Positions 4,026 to 17,091 of a DNA stretch of 25,033 bases are shown here, piece after piece. Below the pieces are notes generated by a model. It was not told the origin of the DNA and did no database searches. It saw only the letters and a list, made by a program, of their open reading frames with translations. This stretch comes from a virus. Taxonomy: Duplodnaviria; Caudoviricetes. Both the position numbers and the translations under genes were made by a program. Location of the stretch: positions 1 to 25,033 of IMG/VR virus record IMGVR_UViG_3300009602_000083, one strand, 5' to 3'. Every line of letters begins with the position of its first letter. Within the stretch, counting starts at the first letter, position 1.

Positions 4026-4477
4026 ACTCCAATGGCAAGACGCGAATGCTTCCTAACACGAAGCCATACGCGATGCGCCTGGAGGAGCCTCCCAAGCCCC
4101 CTCGGCCTGGTCTTCCTAGCACTATGGCGATCAAAGGAATGAGGCTGGGGGAGCTGGACACCGTCTTTGACAGTGTGAATGGGACGATTACAATGGGTGG
4201 TACGACCTTCACGGCTCTCGAGTGGTTCGAGTTCCGCTACCGTGCTGACCTCCTCTTCGAACGAGCAGGTAGGATGGAGCGGGTGAAGCCACCTAGTAAC
4301 CCCGATGTCGAAGGATCGTCTAGCTTTCTGACTAGGAACGTGAAGACGATCCTTAGGCTAGACCGAGGGATGATCCAGGAGATTCCAGCTCCCAATGGTC
4401 CATACGATGAGGCCCATATCGAGTGGATGAAGGAGCGGTACTCCATGGTCATAACCAAGGAGGAATATGCAAACTAG
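4004..4477 (+). CDS. Hypothetical protein (157 aa; start uncertain)
   Basis: Overlaps both neighbours and tiles the operon. Confidence 0.7.
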   Translation: MDVPTKVDSNGKTRMLPNTKPYAMRLEEPPKPPRPGLPSTMAIKGMRLGELDTVFDSVNGTITMGGTTFTALEWFEFRYRADLLFERAGRMERVKPPSNPDVEGSSSFLTRNVKTILRLDRGMIQEIPAPNGPYDEAHIEWMKERYSMVITKEEYAN

Positions 4478-5033
4478 TGTAGAGCAAAAGGTATCGTGTG
4501 GCTGTGGGAAAGAGATTGCCGGTAAGGGTATGAACGGCCATCTGCGGTCCAAGTTCCACATGGATTGGGCAAAGGCTGCAGCGGCCGATCCGAATACCAG
4601 CGTGTCATCGGATCCTGTGGTGGATGACACGTTGGGCCTGCAGACTCCGGAACCTACCCTCAATGGCACGTCTGAGGACATAGCGGCTGAGGTGAAGCGG
4701 ATACTGGCCGACCCTAAGCTCCTCGCTGAGGTGATGGAGAAAGCGAAGCCCGGACCCGTCCCCATGATACCTGACGAAGAGGCTATCCTCGCCCGAGCTA
4801 GGGCAGGAGCTGATCCTATTGAGCTTGCCAAGGATCTCAGGGCAGTCTTCATAAGCAACGACTGGCCGAGTCCAGCTCACCCTCAGACACAGTTGGACTG
4901 GCTGAAGCAGCACAATATTCCAATACGGACGTTGCCCCGGCATATGGACCCAGATATGGTTCGGCAGTATATGAACAACTGGTATGCCGAGCTGAAGGAT
5001 GCCGGCTGGGGCACGACCTGGGAGATTAGGTAA
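4467..5033 (+). CDS. Hypothetical protein with N-terminal C2H2-like zinc finger
   Basis: CGCG-x9-HLRSKFH motif; SD AAGGAGG upstream. Confidence 0.75.
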   Translation: MQTSVEQKVSCGCGKEIAGKGMNGHLRSKFHMDWAKAAAADPNTSVSSDPVVDDTLGLQTPEPTLNGTSEDIAAEVKRILADPKLLAEVMEKAKPGPVPMIPDEEAILARARAGADPIELAKDLRAVFISNDWPSPAHPQTQLDWLKQHNIPIRTLPRHMDPDMVRQYMNNWYAELKDAGWGTTWEIR

Positions 5034-12906: not shown

Positions 12907-13024
12907 CTGACTTCTTCCCCCCTCCTTCACAGTAGTGGCGCCCTACTCTATGCCGGTGGATGCGCCCCTTCCAGAGGAGAATCCAGCGTAGGCAGTCGGG
13001 GCAGCGGCCATAGCTTGGACTCAC
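12887..13024 (-). CDS. 45-aa zinc-finger microprotein (not in ORF track)
   Basis: Hand translation MSPSYGRCPDCLRWILLWKGRIHRHRVGRHYCEGGGKKSARASSR; AAGGAG 7 nt before GTG 13024; CxxC..H..C motif. Confidence 0.7.
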   Translation of the reverse strand: MSPSYGRCPDCLRWILLWKGRIHRHRVGRHYCEGGGKKSARASSR

Positions 13025-13028
13025 AAGC

Positions 13029-13370
13029 TTACTCCTTCTTCCTCTCCACCAACAGCCATGGACTCCCTTCCTCCTTTGAGGCTTCCGTAGCTGCTTTTAT
13101 GATTTCAGGACTGACGCCGGCATCCACCAAGCTCTTCTTGAACTTTGGTGGCTTCTGAGTGGTGGTGGTCCGCCAGGTGATCATATGCTGGTCCAGGGAG
13201 AACTTCTTCTCGTCGGGGAACTCCTCCAGGATCACCTTGAGGATCTCCTTCTGGGCGTCCTCTATCTCCTCCATCTGCTGTCTGATTTCTCGGGCCTGGA
13301 GAAGCTTCACGCAGACCTCTTCAATTCCAGGGTGGTCTAGCTCTAGCGGCTTTGGTGCTTTAACGGCCAT
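13029..13370 (-). CDS. Hypothetical protein (113 aa, coiled-coil N-half)
   Basis: Strong AAAGGAG SD; follows polymerase. Confidence 0.8.
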   Translation of the reverse strand: MAVKAPKPLELDHPGIEEVCVKLLQAREIRQQMEEIEDAQKEILKVILEEFPDEKKFSLDQHMITWRTTTTQKPPKFKKSLVDAGVSPEIIKAATEASKEEGSPWLLVERKKE

Positions 13371-13394
13371 CTCTCTCTCCTTTGATCTCTTCCA

Positions 13395-16247
13395 TTAGGT
13401 CATTTCTCTCCAGTTCTTTCCTACCTTAGTCTCCACCTTCACGGGCACTGAGAGTCGCACGGCGTCCTCCATCATTGGGACTATGAAGACCTTCCAGTTC
13501 TCCATACCGGCATCCGGAAGTTCCCACATCAGCTCATCGTGGATCTGGAGGAGCCAGTTCGGACCTCTTACTCCATCTCTGTTCTCCGCTCTCCAGATGT
13601 TCACCATCGCCAGCTTGAGGATCCCTTGTGCGCTGCTCTGGATGGGCATATTGATTGCCTTCCGCTCCCCATCTCCACGATACCTGGGAATTGGGCATCC
13701 CATCTCTGGTGTATAGCGGATCCTCCCGAACATGTCCTTCACGAAGCCATTGAGTCGAGCGAAGGAGAGAATACCATCCTGCCAATCCCTGAGCTCTGGC
13801 CGGAGCTTATAGTAGTCCTTGATGAAATTCTCGCAGCGCCGTTCGTCCCATCCTTCAATCCCTTCTGACTCCATCTGGGTGAGGAGACCATAAGGTGAGA
13901 GCCCGTAGAGGACTCCGAAGCCAAGGGTCTTCGCGGCATAGCGCTCCGCGGATCCCTTTTCTACCACCTTCCCATACATCTGGTTGGCGGTCTCTGTGTG
14001 AATGTCCCGGTCTTCCCAGAACAGGTCGATCATGGACTTGCACTGAGCTAGGTGTGCGGCGACTCTCATCTCTATTTGGGAGTAGTCTGCAGCAAGGAGG
14101 CTCCAGTCTGGTGCCCGTGAGACGAAGGCCTGTCGTACCAGCTGACCCAGCTCGGTTCGGACTGGTATCTGCATGAGGTTAGGCCGGCGCATGCTCCAAC
14201 GCCCAGTCCCTGTCCTGGTCGGGTTGATGGTGGGGTGGATCTTGCTCTCTGAATCTGCCCACTTGTAGAGGGGGTCAGAGAAGGAGTTCTTCAGGTGGGC
14301 TAGATGCCGGTACTCCTCCACCAGCTTCACGACAGGGTGCTTGATCTTCGCCAGCTCGTCGGACTCTACCGAGGGCAGGCGAGTCTTCTTCGTCAGCTTC
14401 GTAGGCTTAAAGCCCAGGTGGTAGAAGAATAGGAGACGGAGTTCCTTGTCACTGTTCGGGTTGAAGCGCCAATATCCACTCTCTTGACATGGTTGGCAGA
14501 CGGATTCCGTGCCAAGGAACTCTGGACCACCGCATCTTGGGCACTTGATTTTCAGCAGGGCGAAGATCTCCTCACTCTTCTCCTGCATCAAGGCCATGTA
14601 ATGCTCACTGAGCCACTTAAGGTGCTCCCGGTCCACCGTGATGCCGTTCTTCTCCATCTCCCGGGCGATGGGGAGAGTCTGCCGGTCTATCTCATACGCG
14701 AATCGGACACCCTTAGCATCGAGCTCCTCAGATAGGACACGGTGAACCCGGAGGGTGGCGTCAGGGTCTCTCGCCGAGTAGTAAACGGCGTCCTTCCGGG
14801 GGATGTCTTCGAGATTTGCGTCAGGCATAGTGCCAAGAACCGCCTCAATAGCTTTTCTCTCTCGGACATCAATATTATGCCAACGACTCCAGGGATCAAC
14901 TGGTCCATCTTTCAGCACCTTCCCTGACGCTAGGTCCGCCAGGATCTTCTTGATCTTCTTGGTGATGTGATTCGGGTGCTTAGCGACGATGGAGTAGGTA
15001 TTGTCCTTGACGTTCCACTTCTCGTCCTCAATGAGGGGCGGATCCGGCCACATGTCCCCGAGCTGGAGAGGTTCTCCCGTCTTCGCCGCAGCCTTGATTG
15101 CCTTCTGCGCCTGCGCGGTGGTCAGGGGAACGTCTGGGTGCTTCTGCAGCGCTGTCTGCAGGTAATAGAGAGCCTTCCCCCTCCTGTGACCGCTGATGGT
15201 GTCCATGTATGACTTCATCTCCATCCCGCAGAGGCGCCAAGCGAGCTCCTTAAGACCTTGTGGAAGCCCGAGGCAATATGCCATCGCCATCGTATCGTCG
15301 GTGTGAAAGGGAAGGTCAGCGAATTTAGAGTCAAACATGTAATTGTGGACAACCATGTGCTCCACTTCAGAGAGGTTGGGCTTCTCGGGACCATCTAGGA
15401 AGATAGCGGCTCCTGGCTCAACTGCTAGTTGGGTGCTCCAGAGGCTGTCTCCTATCGTCTCTGTGTCTAGCGCAACAACTCCTTGTTCACGGTAAGGCAT
15501 AGGCGCATCTCTAAAGCCTGCAGCTGCACCCACGTCGTAATACTCTTCCTTCCCAGCCCACTCATCCACCGGCCGCTTAATCTCCTCCCCCCTCACTAGT
15601 TTCCCAAGGACAGCGAAGTCCTCTTGGATAAATCTCATGTTTCCGGTGTCGTAGAACCCCGACGCTGGGTGATAGGCGGGGAGGAGGATTGTTCCCTCTC
15701 CAGCAGCGCTGTAAACGTGCGGTCGTTGAAGGCTACCGTGTGAACCCTCCAGCGCGTTCGTGCTAACTGGTTCAGTGTCTCCATCCCCTTCGTCTGCTCC
15801 GACTCGTCGAAGATGTGTAACCGGTATTCCATGACGGTGTTCAACGGTCTCTCCTTCACCCAACAGGAAGTCTGTCGCGACCTTCCCGAGGGTCATGATA
15901 ATCTTCGGCTGGAAGAGAGCGATCTCCTTCATCCGCCATCGCTCTCCACAGAATTGGGCCTGGGCTGGAGTAGGGTCGGCATTCCCCTCTGGCCGGCACT
16001 TCACCGTGTTGGAGAAGAGCACCTCGTCCCTGGTTAGATCACACTTCTGGAGCAGAGCGTCAAGGTATTGCCCAGCATGTCCAACCCAAGGCTGTCCCTT
16101 GGCGTCTTCGTTCTGTCCAGGTGCCTCCCCGACGATCATCACCTTTGCGTCGACAGGGCCTACCGCGGGGACTGGGCCCTTGCACTTTGCCCTGAGGTCG
16201 CAGGAGGTGCAGCTACGGTTGACGTCATACAGCGGCGTTTTGATCAT
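13395..16247 (-). CDS. polA: Family A DNA polymerase with N-terminal family-4 uracil-DNA glycosylase and 3'-5' exonuclease domains
   Basis: UDG: CTSCDL, GEAPG, NTVKCRP, YHPA. Exonuclease: LDTET, HNYMFD, YSARD. Polymerase motifs A DYSQIEMR, B RYAAKTLGFGVLYG, C IHDEL. Confidence 0.95.
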   Translation of the reverse strand: MIKTPLYDVNRSCTSCDLRAKCKGPVPAVGPVDAKVMIVGEAPGQNEDAKGQPWVGHAGQYLDALLQKCDLTRDEVLFSNTVKCRPEGNADPTPAQAQFCGERWRMKEIALFQPKIIMTLGKVATDFLLGEGETVEHRHGIPVTHLRRVGADEGDGDTEPVSTNALEGSHGSLQRPHVYSAAGEGTILLPAYHPASGFYDTGNMRFIQEDFAVLGKLVRGEEIKRPVDEWAGKEEYYDVGAAAGFRDAPMPYREQGVVALDTETIGDSLWSTQLAVEPGAAIFLDGPEKPNLSEVEHMVVHNYMFDSKFADLPFHTDDTMAMAYCLGLPQGLKELAWRLCGMEMKSYMDTISGHRRGKALYYLQTALQKHPDVPLTTAQAQKAIKAAAKTGEPLQLGDMWPDPPLIEDEKWNVKDNTYSIVAKHPNHITKKIKKILADLASGKVLKDGPVDPWSRWHNIDVRERKAIEAVLGTMPDANLEDIPRKDAVYYSARDPDATLRVHRVLSEELDAKGVRFAYEIDRQTLPIAREMEKNGITVDREHLKWLSEHYMALMQEKSEEIFALLKIKCPRCGGPEFLGTESVCQPCQESGYWRFNPNSDKELRLLFFYHLGFKPTKLTKKTRLPSVESDELAKIKHPVVKLVEEYRHLAHLKNSFSDPLYKWADSESKIHPTINPTRTGTGRWSMRRPNLMQIPVRTELGQLVRQAFVSRAPDWSLLAADYSQIEMRVAAHLAQCKSMIDLFWEDRDIHTETANQMYGKVVEKGSAERYAAKTLGFGVLYGLSPYGLLTQMESEGIEGWDERRCENFIKDYYKLRPELRDWQDGILSFARLNGFVKDMFGRIRYTPEMGCPIPRYRGDGERKAINMPIQSSAQGILKLAMVNIWRAENRDGVRGPNWLLQIHDELMWELPDAGMENWKVFIVPMMEDAVRLSVPVKVETKVGKNWREMT
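15635..15844 (-). CDS. Nested +1-frame gene inside polA, DUF4177-like small protein (start TTG 15844 or ATG 15832)
   Basis: MEYRLHIFDESEQTKGMETLNQLARTRWRVHTVAFNDRTFTALLERE resembles the DUF4177 pattern (EY..; LN.l...W.v; l.R); AAGGAG at 15856-15851, 6 nt before TTG; coincides with an insertion in the UDG domain. Confidence 0.55.
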   Translation of the reverse strand: MNTVMEYRLHIFDESEQTKGMETLNQLARTRWRVHTVAFNDRTFTALLEREQSSSPPITQRRGSTTPET

Positions 16248-16548
16248 GGGCTGCCTCCTCCACGTACTTCTCTGCTCCGGCCTTCATGATGATCACGACG
16301 TCGTCGTCCTGCAGAAGCCTCCAGGCTTCCCAGAGATTCCCACTTCCACCTAGATCGTCTGTGCTCTCAACCAGCATGATGATTCTGTCCACCAAATCTG
16401 AAGGGAGGAGGGCATAGAGGGTCTCAATGTAATGGTGCTTGTAGTAGCGCCTTGCTCCTAAGACACGTCTGCCCAAGTCCCTCCCATATCGTTCCTTCAT
16501 CTCGGCGTTCAGCCAATCCGATATAGCGTCTGTGAACTCACGCTCCAT
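16225..16548 (-). CDS. Hypothetical protein (107 aa)
   Basis: GAGGAG SD; overlaps neighbours. Confidence 0.75.
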   Translation of the reverse strand: MEREFTDAISDWLNAEMKERYGRDLGRRVLGARRYYKHHYIETLYALLPSDLVDRIIMLVESTDDLGGSGNLWEAWRLLQDDDVVIIMKAGAEKYVEEAAHDQNAAV

Positions 16549-16846
16549 GATGATGCTCCTCTCCTCCTGGCATTTCTCTCTCTTCCAGCAGCTCTCTCAG
16601 ATCCGAGGCCTCCCCAAACATCTGGTATAGCTGAATCCCGAAGGAGAGGCCACCGCACCAGACATTCATGAGGGCCCCTCGTCGGTGGTACATGCAACAG
16701 TTTATTGGCTTCGACTTCCCAATCTCCATCATGTAATCCAGCATGGCCTGATACTCCCCGGGTAGCTTTCGCGCTACGTAGGGTTCGACAGAGGTATGCT
16801 CCCTGATGACGTTGAAGAGGTTGGTCAGCTGCTCGGCGAAGGTCAT
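16538..16846 (-). CDS. Hypothetical protein (102 aa)
   Basis: ATGA coupling to upstream gene; tiles operon. Confidence 0.7.
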   Translation of the reverse strand: MTFAEQLTNLFNVIREHTSVEPYVARKLPGEYQAMLDYMMEIGKSKPINCCMYHRRGALMNVWCGGLSFGIQLYQMFGEASDLRELLEEREMPGGEEHHHGA

Positions 16847-17091
16847 GAGGGCGTCTCTTCATCTGCGTTCTCCAGCTCTGTCAGCTCCCTCAGCGCTTCC
16901 TCAAGCTGCGTAGTCTTGTTCCAGAGCTCTGCTTCTATCTCTATAAGCTCACTCTCCAGCTCCTGAATAGCCTCCTTCTCAGCTAGATCAGTGGCATGTA
17001 TCTGGCGGCAGATTTCGTGCCCGGTGAATCCATCCCTTAGGTCAGACTCATCCACCTTGGGCCTGTCGTCTATACATATCTGGCAAATCAT
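16843..17091 (-). CDS. 82-aa protein, CxxC..H..C zinc motif plus acidic coiled coil
   Basis: ATGA overlap with the ERCC4 stop gives start 17091 (MICQICIDD...GHEIC); the track's longer N-terminus is off-frame ERCC4 sequence. Confidence 0.7.
   Translation of the reverse strand: MICQICIDDRPKVDESDLRDGFTGHEICRQIHATDLAEKEAIQELESELIEIEAELWNKTTQLEEALRELTELENADEETPS

Follow-up and report, generated by a model that had tools for sequence, protein, structure and literature searches.

Genes embedded in larger phage genes include Rz1 in Rz of lambda and E in D and B in A of phiX174; they have their own internal ribosome-binding sites, overlap functional, constrained parts of the host proteins, and are fixed in their lineages. 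Here we analyze a nested open reading frame (ORF) in the IMG/VR record IMGVR_UViG_3300009602_000083 (Duplodnaviria; Caudoviricetes), a 25,033-base phage fragment from a virus record rated 58% complete; the whole fragment is referred to as the window. The ORF lies in the +1 frame of a gene (13395..16247, minus strand) that is open throughout and has a product of 950 residues combining a family-4 uracil-DNA glycosylase (UDG), a 3'-5' exonuclease, and a family A DNA polymerase (PolA). As in lambda and phiX174, a small gene would be located wholly inside a larger one and in another frame; unlike those cases, the overlap is an added loop that is absent from relatives, and its reading in the host frame appears unconstrained. 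Quite probably, this insertion is a small DUF4177-like gene in the +1 frame that is under selection and is likely translated from the polymerase mRNA, with the polymerase likely tolerating it as a floppy loop in its UDG domain.

The nearest published case is ShiLan, in which an out-of-frame HNH homing endonuclease is found in actinophage methylases (PMC11855218). In both cases a phage gene has received an insertion, the host frame is free of stops and filler-like across it, and a protein is encoded in another frame; both lack intron and intein features, have a patchy distribution, and were deduced computationally (PMC11855218). The cargo of ShiLan is a homing endonuclease, whereas that of the window is a 47-residue non-nuclease, which rules out homing as the reason for its spread. 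The ShiLan host is a dispensable methylase, whereas the window host is a replicative polymerase; the ShiLan ORF has a GTG start and a TAA stop inside the insertion, with no ribosome-binding site found, whereas the start, Shine-Dalgarno (SD) sequence, and stop in the window are located in host codons outside the insertion; and the loop in the window's polymerase, unlike ShiLan, takes different cargos as well as in-frame domains (PMC11855218). Of the features that characterize ShiLan, the window has the open host frame with a protein in another frame and the disjunct distribution but not the homing-endonuclease cargo. The architecture is known from ShiLan; the non-nuclease cargo, the polymerase host, and the use of signals from host codons set the window apart.

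A second precedent is provided by actinophage inteins, with DNA polymerase among their hosts, that hold out-of-frame and antisense homing endonucleases (bioRxiv 10.1101/2025.01.02.630785). There, too, a second protein is encoded in another frame of a stretch that is read through; however, the intein cases combine self-splicing with a nuclease, whereas the insertion in the window is 132 nucleotides long and has no splicing domain and no nuclease (bioRxiv 10.1101/2025.01.02.630785). In the literature searched, which included few subscription papers and no supplements, we found no report of a phage polymerase that houses a gene for a non-nuclease, whether DUF4177 or another.

The long loop of the UDG domain

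By its motifs and domains the host protein is a UDG-PolA, with its enzymatic activity predicted. Pfam identifies UDG at residues 28-201 (E 2.9e-26; 15645..16166, minus strand) and DNA_pol_A at residues 593-948 (E 1.3e-93), with the exo1 match remaining below its cut-off; the best PDB match of the UDG domain is the Thermus thermophilus UDG 1ui0 (E 7e-47). The layout of a family-4 UDG fused to PolA is complete, that is, GEAPG, four Fe-S cysteines, HP(A/S) (HPA here), and a C-terminal PolA; we assume the usual roles for the GEAPG, cysteine, and HPA motifs in UDG, and the fusion presumably corresponds to the layout called SPO1-like.

The loop insertion (15690..15821, minus strand; polymerase residues 143-186 in the alignment) reads like filler in the polymerase frame. 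The distance from HG to HP (HGIP to HP) is 54 residues in the window polymerase, 19 in its sister P0002, 12-22 in most relatives, and 16 in 1ui0. An earlier note, made from the sequence of the window, had counted about 46 residues between HRHG and ILLPAYHPA and had pointed out that family-4 UDGs are usually much shorter here; both statements agree with these distances, and the loop is indeed longer than in relatives, but its true excess is about 35-42 residues, not 46.

We inspected 163 viral and metagenome loci, of which 78 have the HGxP...HP motif and 49 are distinct, 3 of these being stand-alone UDGs of cellular type. The histidine-to-histidine loop has 12-29 residues in 43 of the 49 distinct loci and 47-86 residues in the other 6. 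Four of the long loops with DNA are filler-like (window/L001, L002, L109/L110, and L008/L086); in all four the +1 frame has no stop and the +2 frame has 3-11. In the remaining two (L146 and L162) the insert is in frame and contains paired cysteines, and the +1 frame has 3 and 5 stops, so an open +1 frame with a closed +2 frame occurs in 4 of the 6. In a separate survey of 114 polymerase proteins (74 parsed, of which 67 were usable after 7 mis-parsed loops of 103-114 residues were excluded), loops of 43-167 residues occur in 7 of the 67, among them P0003, P0006, P0055, P0058, and P0065, which are available as protein only. Scans of viral contigs with P0003, the +1 peptide, and the DNA pattern provided no further carrier; the UDG was found in 1 of 120 loci, and that one was already known. 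Of the metagenome set, 54 of 64 parts were scanned, and of the genome set, 5 of 64.

The loop is real and is not an assembly error, because other assemblies retain it. L001 is 99.7% identical to the window over 8,655 nucleotides without gaps and has the same in-frame loop; four more full-length alleles (P0018-P0021, from a 90% cluster; two may be from the L001 strain) have an identical loop and 4-46 changes elsewhere. The compensating indels about which the earlier note had asked are absent from all of these.

The differences among these alleles are unevenly located. Within 15560-16247, L001 differs from the window at 8 positions, all of which fall in 35 bases (15900-15934) just upstream of the nested gene, a cluster that resembles a short recombination patch; polymerase residue 105 is R in the window and L in the other alleles. 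In P0018 the loop is identical and the N-terminal part of the exonuclease (residues 223-325) is swapped, with about 40 changes, which points to recombination inside the gene.

The open +1 frame alone is weak evidence, since a stop-free +1 frame of loop length (45 codons) occurs in 16.5% of 831 same-length segments elsewhere in the window's gene. Across the four filler-type loops, all of which are open, the corresponding backgrounds are 0.165, 0.011, 0.203, and 0.14, with a product of about 5e-5. The base composition is also shifted: the GC content of the three codon positions is 0.76/0.53/0.40 in the loop vs 0.60/0.40/0.69 elsewhere in the window polymerase, and in all four filler loops the GC-rich position is no longer the third polymerase position but the first, which is the wobble position of the +1 frame. 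The difference between first and third positions is 0.28-0.38 in the four loops, a value matched by 0 of 831, 0 of 742, 1.1% of 806, and 0 of 786 segments elsewhere in the same genes; in the in-frame controls (L146 and L162) it is 0.05 and 0.10.

In the polymerase frame the loops of the window and P0003 are 45% identical, vs 73% across the 825 other aligned residues. First-position changes that are silent in the +1 frame account for 11 of 24 substitutions in the loop vs 45 of 219 elsewhere (Fisher p 0.008), and eight consecutive substitutions (residues 166-181) are silent in +1. The best achievable +1 identity of the loop, an upper bound, is 79%, a gain of 0.34 over the polymerase frame, vs gains of 0.13 or less in 114 off-loop segments. 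The codons GGA-ATA-C, which read E-Y in +1, are present in 4 of 4 carriers vs 2 of 45 other loci (p 7e-5, with kinship ignored). When the shared MEY is removed, the +1 peptides of the window, L002, and L110 remain mutually alike (shuffle p 0.026, 0.014, and 0 of 2000), whereas their polymerase-frame loops are not (p 0.33-0.50); the likeness of the L086 +1 peptide to the others is marginal (p 0.04-0.47). These data favor selection in the +1 frame rather than in the polymerase frame across the loop. The earlier proposal of a small gene hosted in the loop with both frames kept open thus holds up, with +1 open in the relatives that have the insertion; relatives preserve the +1 sequence better than the polymerase-frame sequence of this DNA, so the loop probably accommodates an additional, accessory gene with a translation of its own.

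Expression signals and identity of the nested frame

The +1 frame is free of stops from 15892 to a TGA at 15637-15635. Within it, the nested ORF (15635..15844, minus strand) has 69 codons from a TTG at 15844, or 65 from an ATG at 15832 that is formed by the polymerase H-G codons; L002 has the TTG at the same position, with a strong SD, and lacks the ATG. The 47-residue peptide quoted in the earlier note is read from ATG 15832, and the AAGGAG that it pointed out (15851..15856, minus strand; encoded by polymerase G-E-G-E codons) lies 6 nucleotides ahead of TTG 15844, as stated, and also precedes the starts at 4467, 5380, 13370, 20396, and 23098. The note had the +1 ORF start and end at the insertion borders. 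This applies to the DUF4177-like core (15692..15832, minus strand; 47 residues, predicted beta-alpha-beta-beta); the ORF itself starts upstream in conserved polymerase codons and continues for 18 codons through the HPA motif to the TGA. That S/P/T-rich tail (15638..15691, minus strand) is an off-frame reading of the conserved ILLPAYHPASGFYDT motif, and similar tails arise in relatives that have no loop. The nested stop overlaps, as ATGA (15635..15638, minus strand), the ATG of polymerase Met204, which is invariant in 10 of 10 alignment rows; all four carriers have a +1 stop at this position, 10 codons past the HP histidine, as do 19 of the 45 other loci.

SD duplex energies, computed with a generic anti-SD tail, are −8.8 kcal/mol for TTG 15844 vs a median of −7.3 for 23 starts in the window; ATG 15832 has no usable SD (+0.4 kcal/mol). 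A strong SD at the proper distance is found in 3 of 4 carriers (−12.0 kcal/mol for the same TTG in L002 and −11.7 for an ATG one codon further in L109). An SD of −8 kcal/mol or stronger together with a +1 start at the same place is, however, found in 10 of 25 loop-less relatives; we therefore rejected SD strength as evidence for selection, since an SD and a start that loop-less relatives often have are by themselves no evidence of it. Judged from these sequences, the SD, start, and stop are by-products of conserved polymerase codons, and as such they would explain why the loop is suited to a +1 passenger. The insertion site looks pre-wired for +1 expression, because a ribosome-binding site and a start are already present in many loop-less relatives. 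Gene callers have predicted the +1 ORFs of L109 and L008 as genes in some assemblies.

The identity of the cargo was approached through profiles, motifs, and predicted structure. A profile of three +1 peptides searched against 1.84 billion proteins (E ≤ 0.001) has four matches: one is L109's own +1 ORF, and of the three others two are DUF4177 proteins that exceed the Pfam cut-off, the third being a repeat protein. Alignment with hhalign to DUF4177 has a probability of 74 and a pairwise E of 2.7e-5 over 18 columns. In a 15-column DUF4177 motif matrix, built like the profile described below from 30 PF13783 matches collected independently from Chloroflexota genomes, L002 ranks 1, the window 2, L110 13, and L086 23 of 14,383 +1 15-mers. 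The motif L-N-x-x-x-x-x-x-W-x-V is located within the insertion, recurs on separate branches, and is shared by the window with two of the three other +1-open loci with DNA. Across 31 residues the core in the window shares 42% identity with P0032, a free-standing 60-residue DUF4177 protein that was chosen with the profile and so is not independent of it; a free-standing 50-residue relative of P0032 is encoded by an unrelated phage (a gene of L278). The homology to DUF4177 members at the profile level is weak but consistent.

DUF4177 has a layout of one helix and three strands (PMC11322243). The AlphaFold model, predicted from 3 sequences (pLDDT 76), has the same elements (E2-7 H10-24 E28-36 E39-46, that is, strand-helix-strand-strand), although the predicted fold is generic: the PDB matches point to a very common mini-fold (best Z 6.2), and the BFVD matches, among them DUF4177 (TM 0.63) and DUF1737 (TM 0.78), include none at E ≤ 0.001. 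Pfam and PHROGs provided nothing significant for the +1 peptides and no nuclease family, a word-based homologue search with the 47-residue peptide gave no candidate, the fetched phage loci (23,311 ORFs) have no free-standing copy of the nested family, and blastn found none of the four inserts elsewhere. The DUF4177 pattern named in the earlier note is thus borne out by the profile of +1 peptides but not by PF13783 itself, and we describe the cargo as DUF4177-like, that is, a probable DUF4177-type mini-protein below the formal Pfam cut-off.

One member of the family, PEG 446 of Clostridium tyrobutyricum, is reported to be antibacterial when overexpressed or as a recombinant protein (PMC11322243; a single paper on a distant member); another DUF4177 protein is syntenic with regulators in Streptomyces (PMC13118837). 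The window peptide resembles PEG 446 in size, its EY start, an LN..G/RW.V helix-strand motif, a last hydrophobic strand ending in ERE, and one helix with three strands; in contrast to the free-standing DUF4177 proteins and PEG 446 (PMC11322243), it is nested, is below the Pfam cut-off, and has an 18-residue off-frame tail. The nested product has no nuclease or splicing features. Only tentatively do we suggest an accessory role of the moron type, in which it would be produced during replication and bind a protein of the host or the phage.

Origin, proposed mechanism, and alternative explanations

The earlier note had considered the small gene to be overprinted on the polymerase. Because the cargo has free-standing relatives, it most likely arrived instead as inserted DNA, with the polymerase-frame reading as a by-product, and not by de novo overprinting. 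In a quick tree of 41 polymerases made without the loop (37 counted rows; P0055, P0065, L086, and L146 uncounted), the six DUF-like carriers occupy four branches and have sisters that lack the loop (P0002, P0004, L111, and L097), and 4 changes are needed; a single clade of carriers, a group named after seeing the first tree, is rejected (p-AU 6e-69, by the approximately unbiased test on that quick tree). This pattern is compatible with gain on several occasions, with a single early gain followed by about five losses, and with transfer by recombination.

Recombination is directly visible in L086, which is 95-97% identical to the loop-less L087 and identical to it over the preceding 100 alignment columns. 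Where the insert starts, at V-H-G-I-P-V, the two have six consecutive synonymous differences, which mark a recombination patch that brought the insert along. The P0006 insert repeats the EHVHGI target motif, as would be expected of microhomology-guided insertion. Two more indels distinguish L086 from L087 upstream of the polymerase (188 and 68 bases; L086:3787-3974 and 4796-4863) in genomes that are otherwise 96% identical.

We propose that a free-standing small phage gene of a DUF4177-like family recombined into the loop. Translation from 16247 would yield the complete UDG-exonuclease-PolA, longer by about 38 residues; other ribosomes would bind at the AAGGAG, start at TTG 15844, and stop at 15635, giving by internal initiation a 69-residue protein made of the 47-residue beta-alpha-beta-beta domain and an unselected tail. 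Ordinary polymerase codons would provide the +1 SD (L/G-G-E), the +1 starts (V-E, H-V, and H-G), and the +1 stop (L-M or M-R), so the cargo need only keep the polymerase frame free of stops. Homologous recombination in the conserved flanks would then likely carry the cargo from one polymerase allele to another, or deletion would remove it. We infer that the loop is tolerated from its variation in length (12-167 residues) and from its position in the 1ui0 alignment at what we take to be a hairpin turn of family-4 UDGs. An extension of this proposal, possible but rather doubtful, is that the loop is a pre-wired expression slot in an essential gene, loaded repeatedly with different non-selfish passengers (a DUF4177-like gene on three or four branches, in L086 very recently an unrelated ORF, and possibly those in P0055 and P0065) that are swapped like cassette alleles by recombination, and that the stop at Met204 restarts translation to give a glycosylase-free polymerase.

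Several results weigh against the nested-gene reading. First-position changes between the window and P0003, when counted without regard to silence, are at p 0.065, and P0003 was compared as protein, with the +1 identity an upper bound from back-translation (the same procedure was run along the gene as a control). Translation is predicted to begin at a TTG, a weak start codon; the SD of L008 is poor (−2.6 kcal/mol), SD strength does not distinguish carriers from loop-less relatives (p 0.18), and the window's +1 ORF went unpredicted by gene callers in all three of its versions. The PF13783 gathering cut-off (25 bits) is reached by none of the four +1 peptides (window, L002, L109, and L008; 0 of 5 records). 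A full hidden Markov model from the 30 PF13783 matches places the L002 +1 ORF first of 23,311 ORFs with an E of 0.3 and gives the window's an E of 7.7, which is not significant. In a protein-only scan of 86,828 positions P0006, P0005 (= L002), and P0058 rank 1, 3, and 7, but the window ranks 102 and P0003 262, and rank 2 is an unrelated position. Atlas scores remain below 0.9 (0.88-0.89 for the window to clusters named DUF4177 and 0.82 for L109 to an unnamed one) and are leads only.

The nested gene could be a relic, once inserted and selected but now untranslated, so that only the polymerase frame matters; the patchy distribution with loop-less sisters and the strong divergence of the carriers, which vary in length, would fit, but the +1 frame is still open in all four carriers, the run of eight +1-silent substitutions persists between polymerases that are only 73% identical, and alleles with changes at other sites have retained an identical loop, so we regard this as unlikely. 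Slightly less likely still is a programmed +1 frameshift near HGIP that fuses a truncated UDG(1-139) to the DUF4177-like domain without internal initiation. The start of the +1 frame inside conserved polymerase codons, the TTG, the missing ATG in L002, and the poor SD of L008 are in its favor; however, no slippery heptamer is found within 20 codons of the loop in any of the four carriers, which have no common +1 shift-prone codon, RNA folding at the loop is not unusual (z −0.67), the core resembles an entire DUF4177 protein of the free-standing kind, such as P0032 and the product of the L278 gene, and three of the four carriers have a strong, properly spaced SD.

That the +1 ORF arose by chance, or by de novo overprinting of a variable loop, with a coincidental likeness to DUF4177, would be compatible with an MEY that results from the H-G-I-P codons, with the 16.5% background of open frames, and with a common mini-fold that has no Pfam match; this is nevertheless highly improbable given the recurrence of the L-N-x-x-x-x-x-x-W-x-V motif on separate branches, ranks 1 and 2 in the motif matrix, the identity to P0032, and a GC register that is shifted in all four loops. 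Least credible is an in-frame inserted domain masked by two compensating indels, whether assembly errors or double recoding: in its favor, the DUF-like core and the insertion have almost the same extent, and in-frame passenger domains do occur in this polymerase family (L146/L162 and L102/L096), but the identical loops in L001 and P0018-P0021 largely refute it, the same +1 register is found in three distant lineages, and no −1 slippery site is present at the 3' border of the loop. The region 13000-17000 has no Rfam match near cut-off, the Pfam matches of the polymerase include no intein family, and nothing marks the insertion as a self-splicing element; 132 nucleotides is too short for a self-splicing intron or intein.

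Other inserts in the polymerase family and significance

Other members of the family have inserts of several kinds. The recent insert in L086 (5403-5543; L008:5617-5757) is located in the same loop and is open in +1 but has little likeness to DUF4177 and no good SD; it is called as a gene in ENA assemblies and is probably a different passenger gene. The loops of P0065 and P0055 (167 and 43 residues) are filler-like and do not fit the DUF-like peptides; P0055 was rejected as a DUF-like carrier for this incompatibility, and P0065 weakly fits the +1 peptide of L086 (p 0.003, one of 24 tests). P0006 has a second filler-like insert, of 62 residues, in its exonuclease domain (alignment columns about 380-445); its composition agrees with that of a host frame read across a +1 gene (0.3% of 3,961 background segments), possibly a second nested gene in the same polymerase. 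In-frame inserts include those with cysteine pairs in the UDG loop (L146:2854-3063 and L162:5306-5515), a 104-residue insert that looks by eye like a helix-turn-helix (L102:5937-6248 and L096:2704-3015), and one of roughly 110 residues in the linker after the exonuclease of P0004. A subclade (L003/L031, L033, L034, L126, P0038, P0045, and P0048) has ORFs of about 480-500 residues with UDG and exonuclease only, so that its polymerase is split or interrupted.

In the window itself, the polymerase domain contains a short CxxC...CxxC insert (about 14460-14540; residues 570-595) in common with P0002, P0003, and L110, across which both other frames happen to be free of stops for 26 codons. The replication block is on the minus strand of the window and the capsid gene on the plus strand. 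A search for the phage's host through 401 genomes from a single Chloroflexota class gave no match, and no cultured relative exceeds 46%.

The out-of-frame insertions in phage genes that we found in the literature are selfish nucleases spread by homing; the window instead has a member of a non-nuclease family that recurs across branches in this loop and frame, with selection on the hidden frame. This points to a general route by which phages may gain accessory genes without new intergenic space or new signals, genes that annotation pipelines miss. A filler-like loop, a shifted GC register, and first-position substitutions would together provide a cheap rule for detecting them, and the locus offers a testable case of overlapping genes that arise by insertion rather than de novo.

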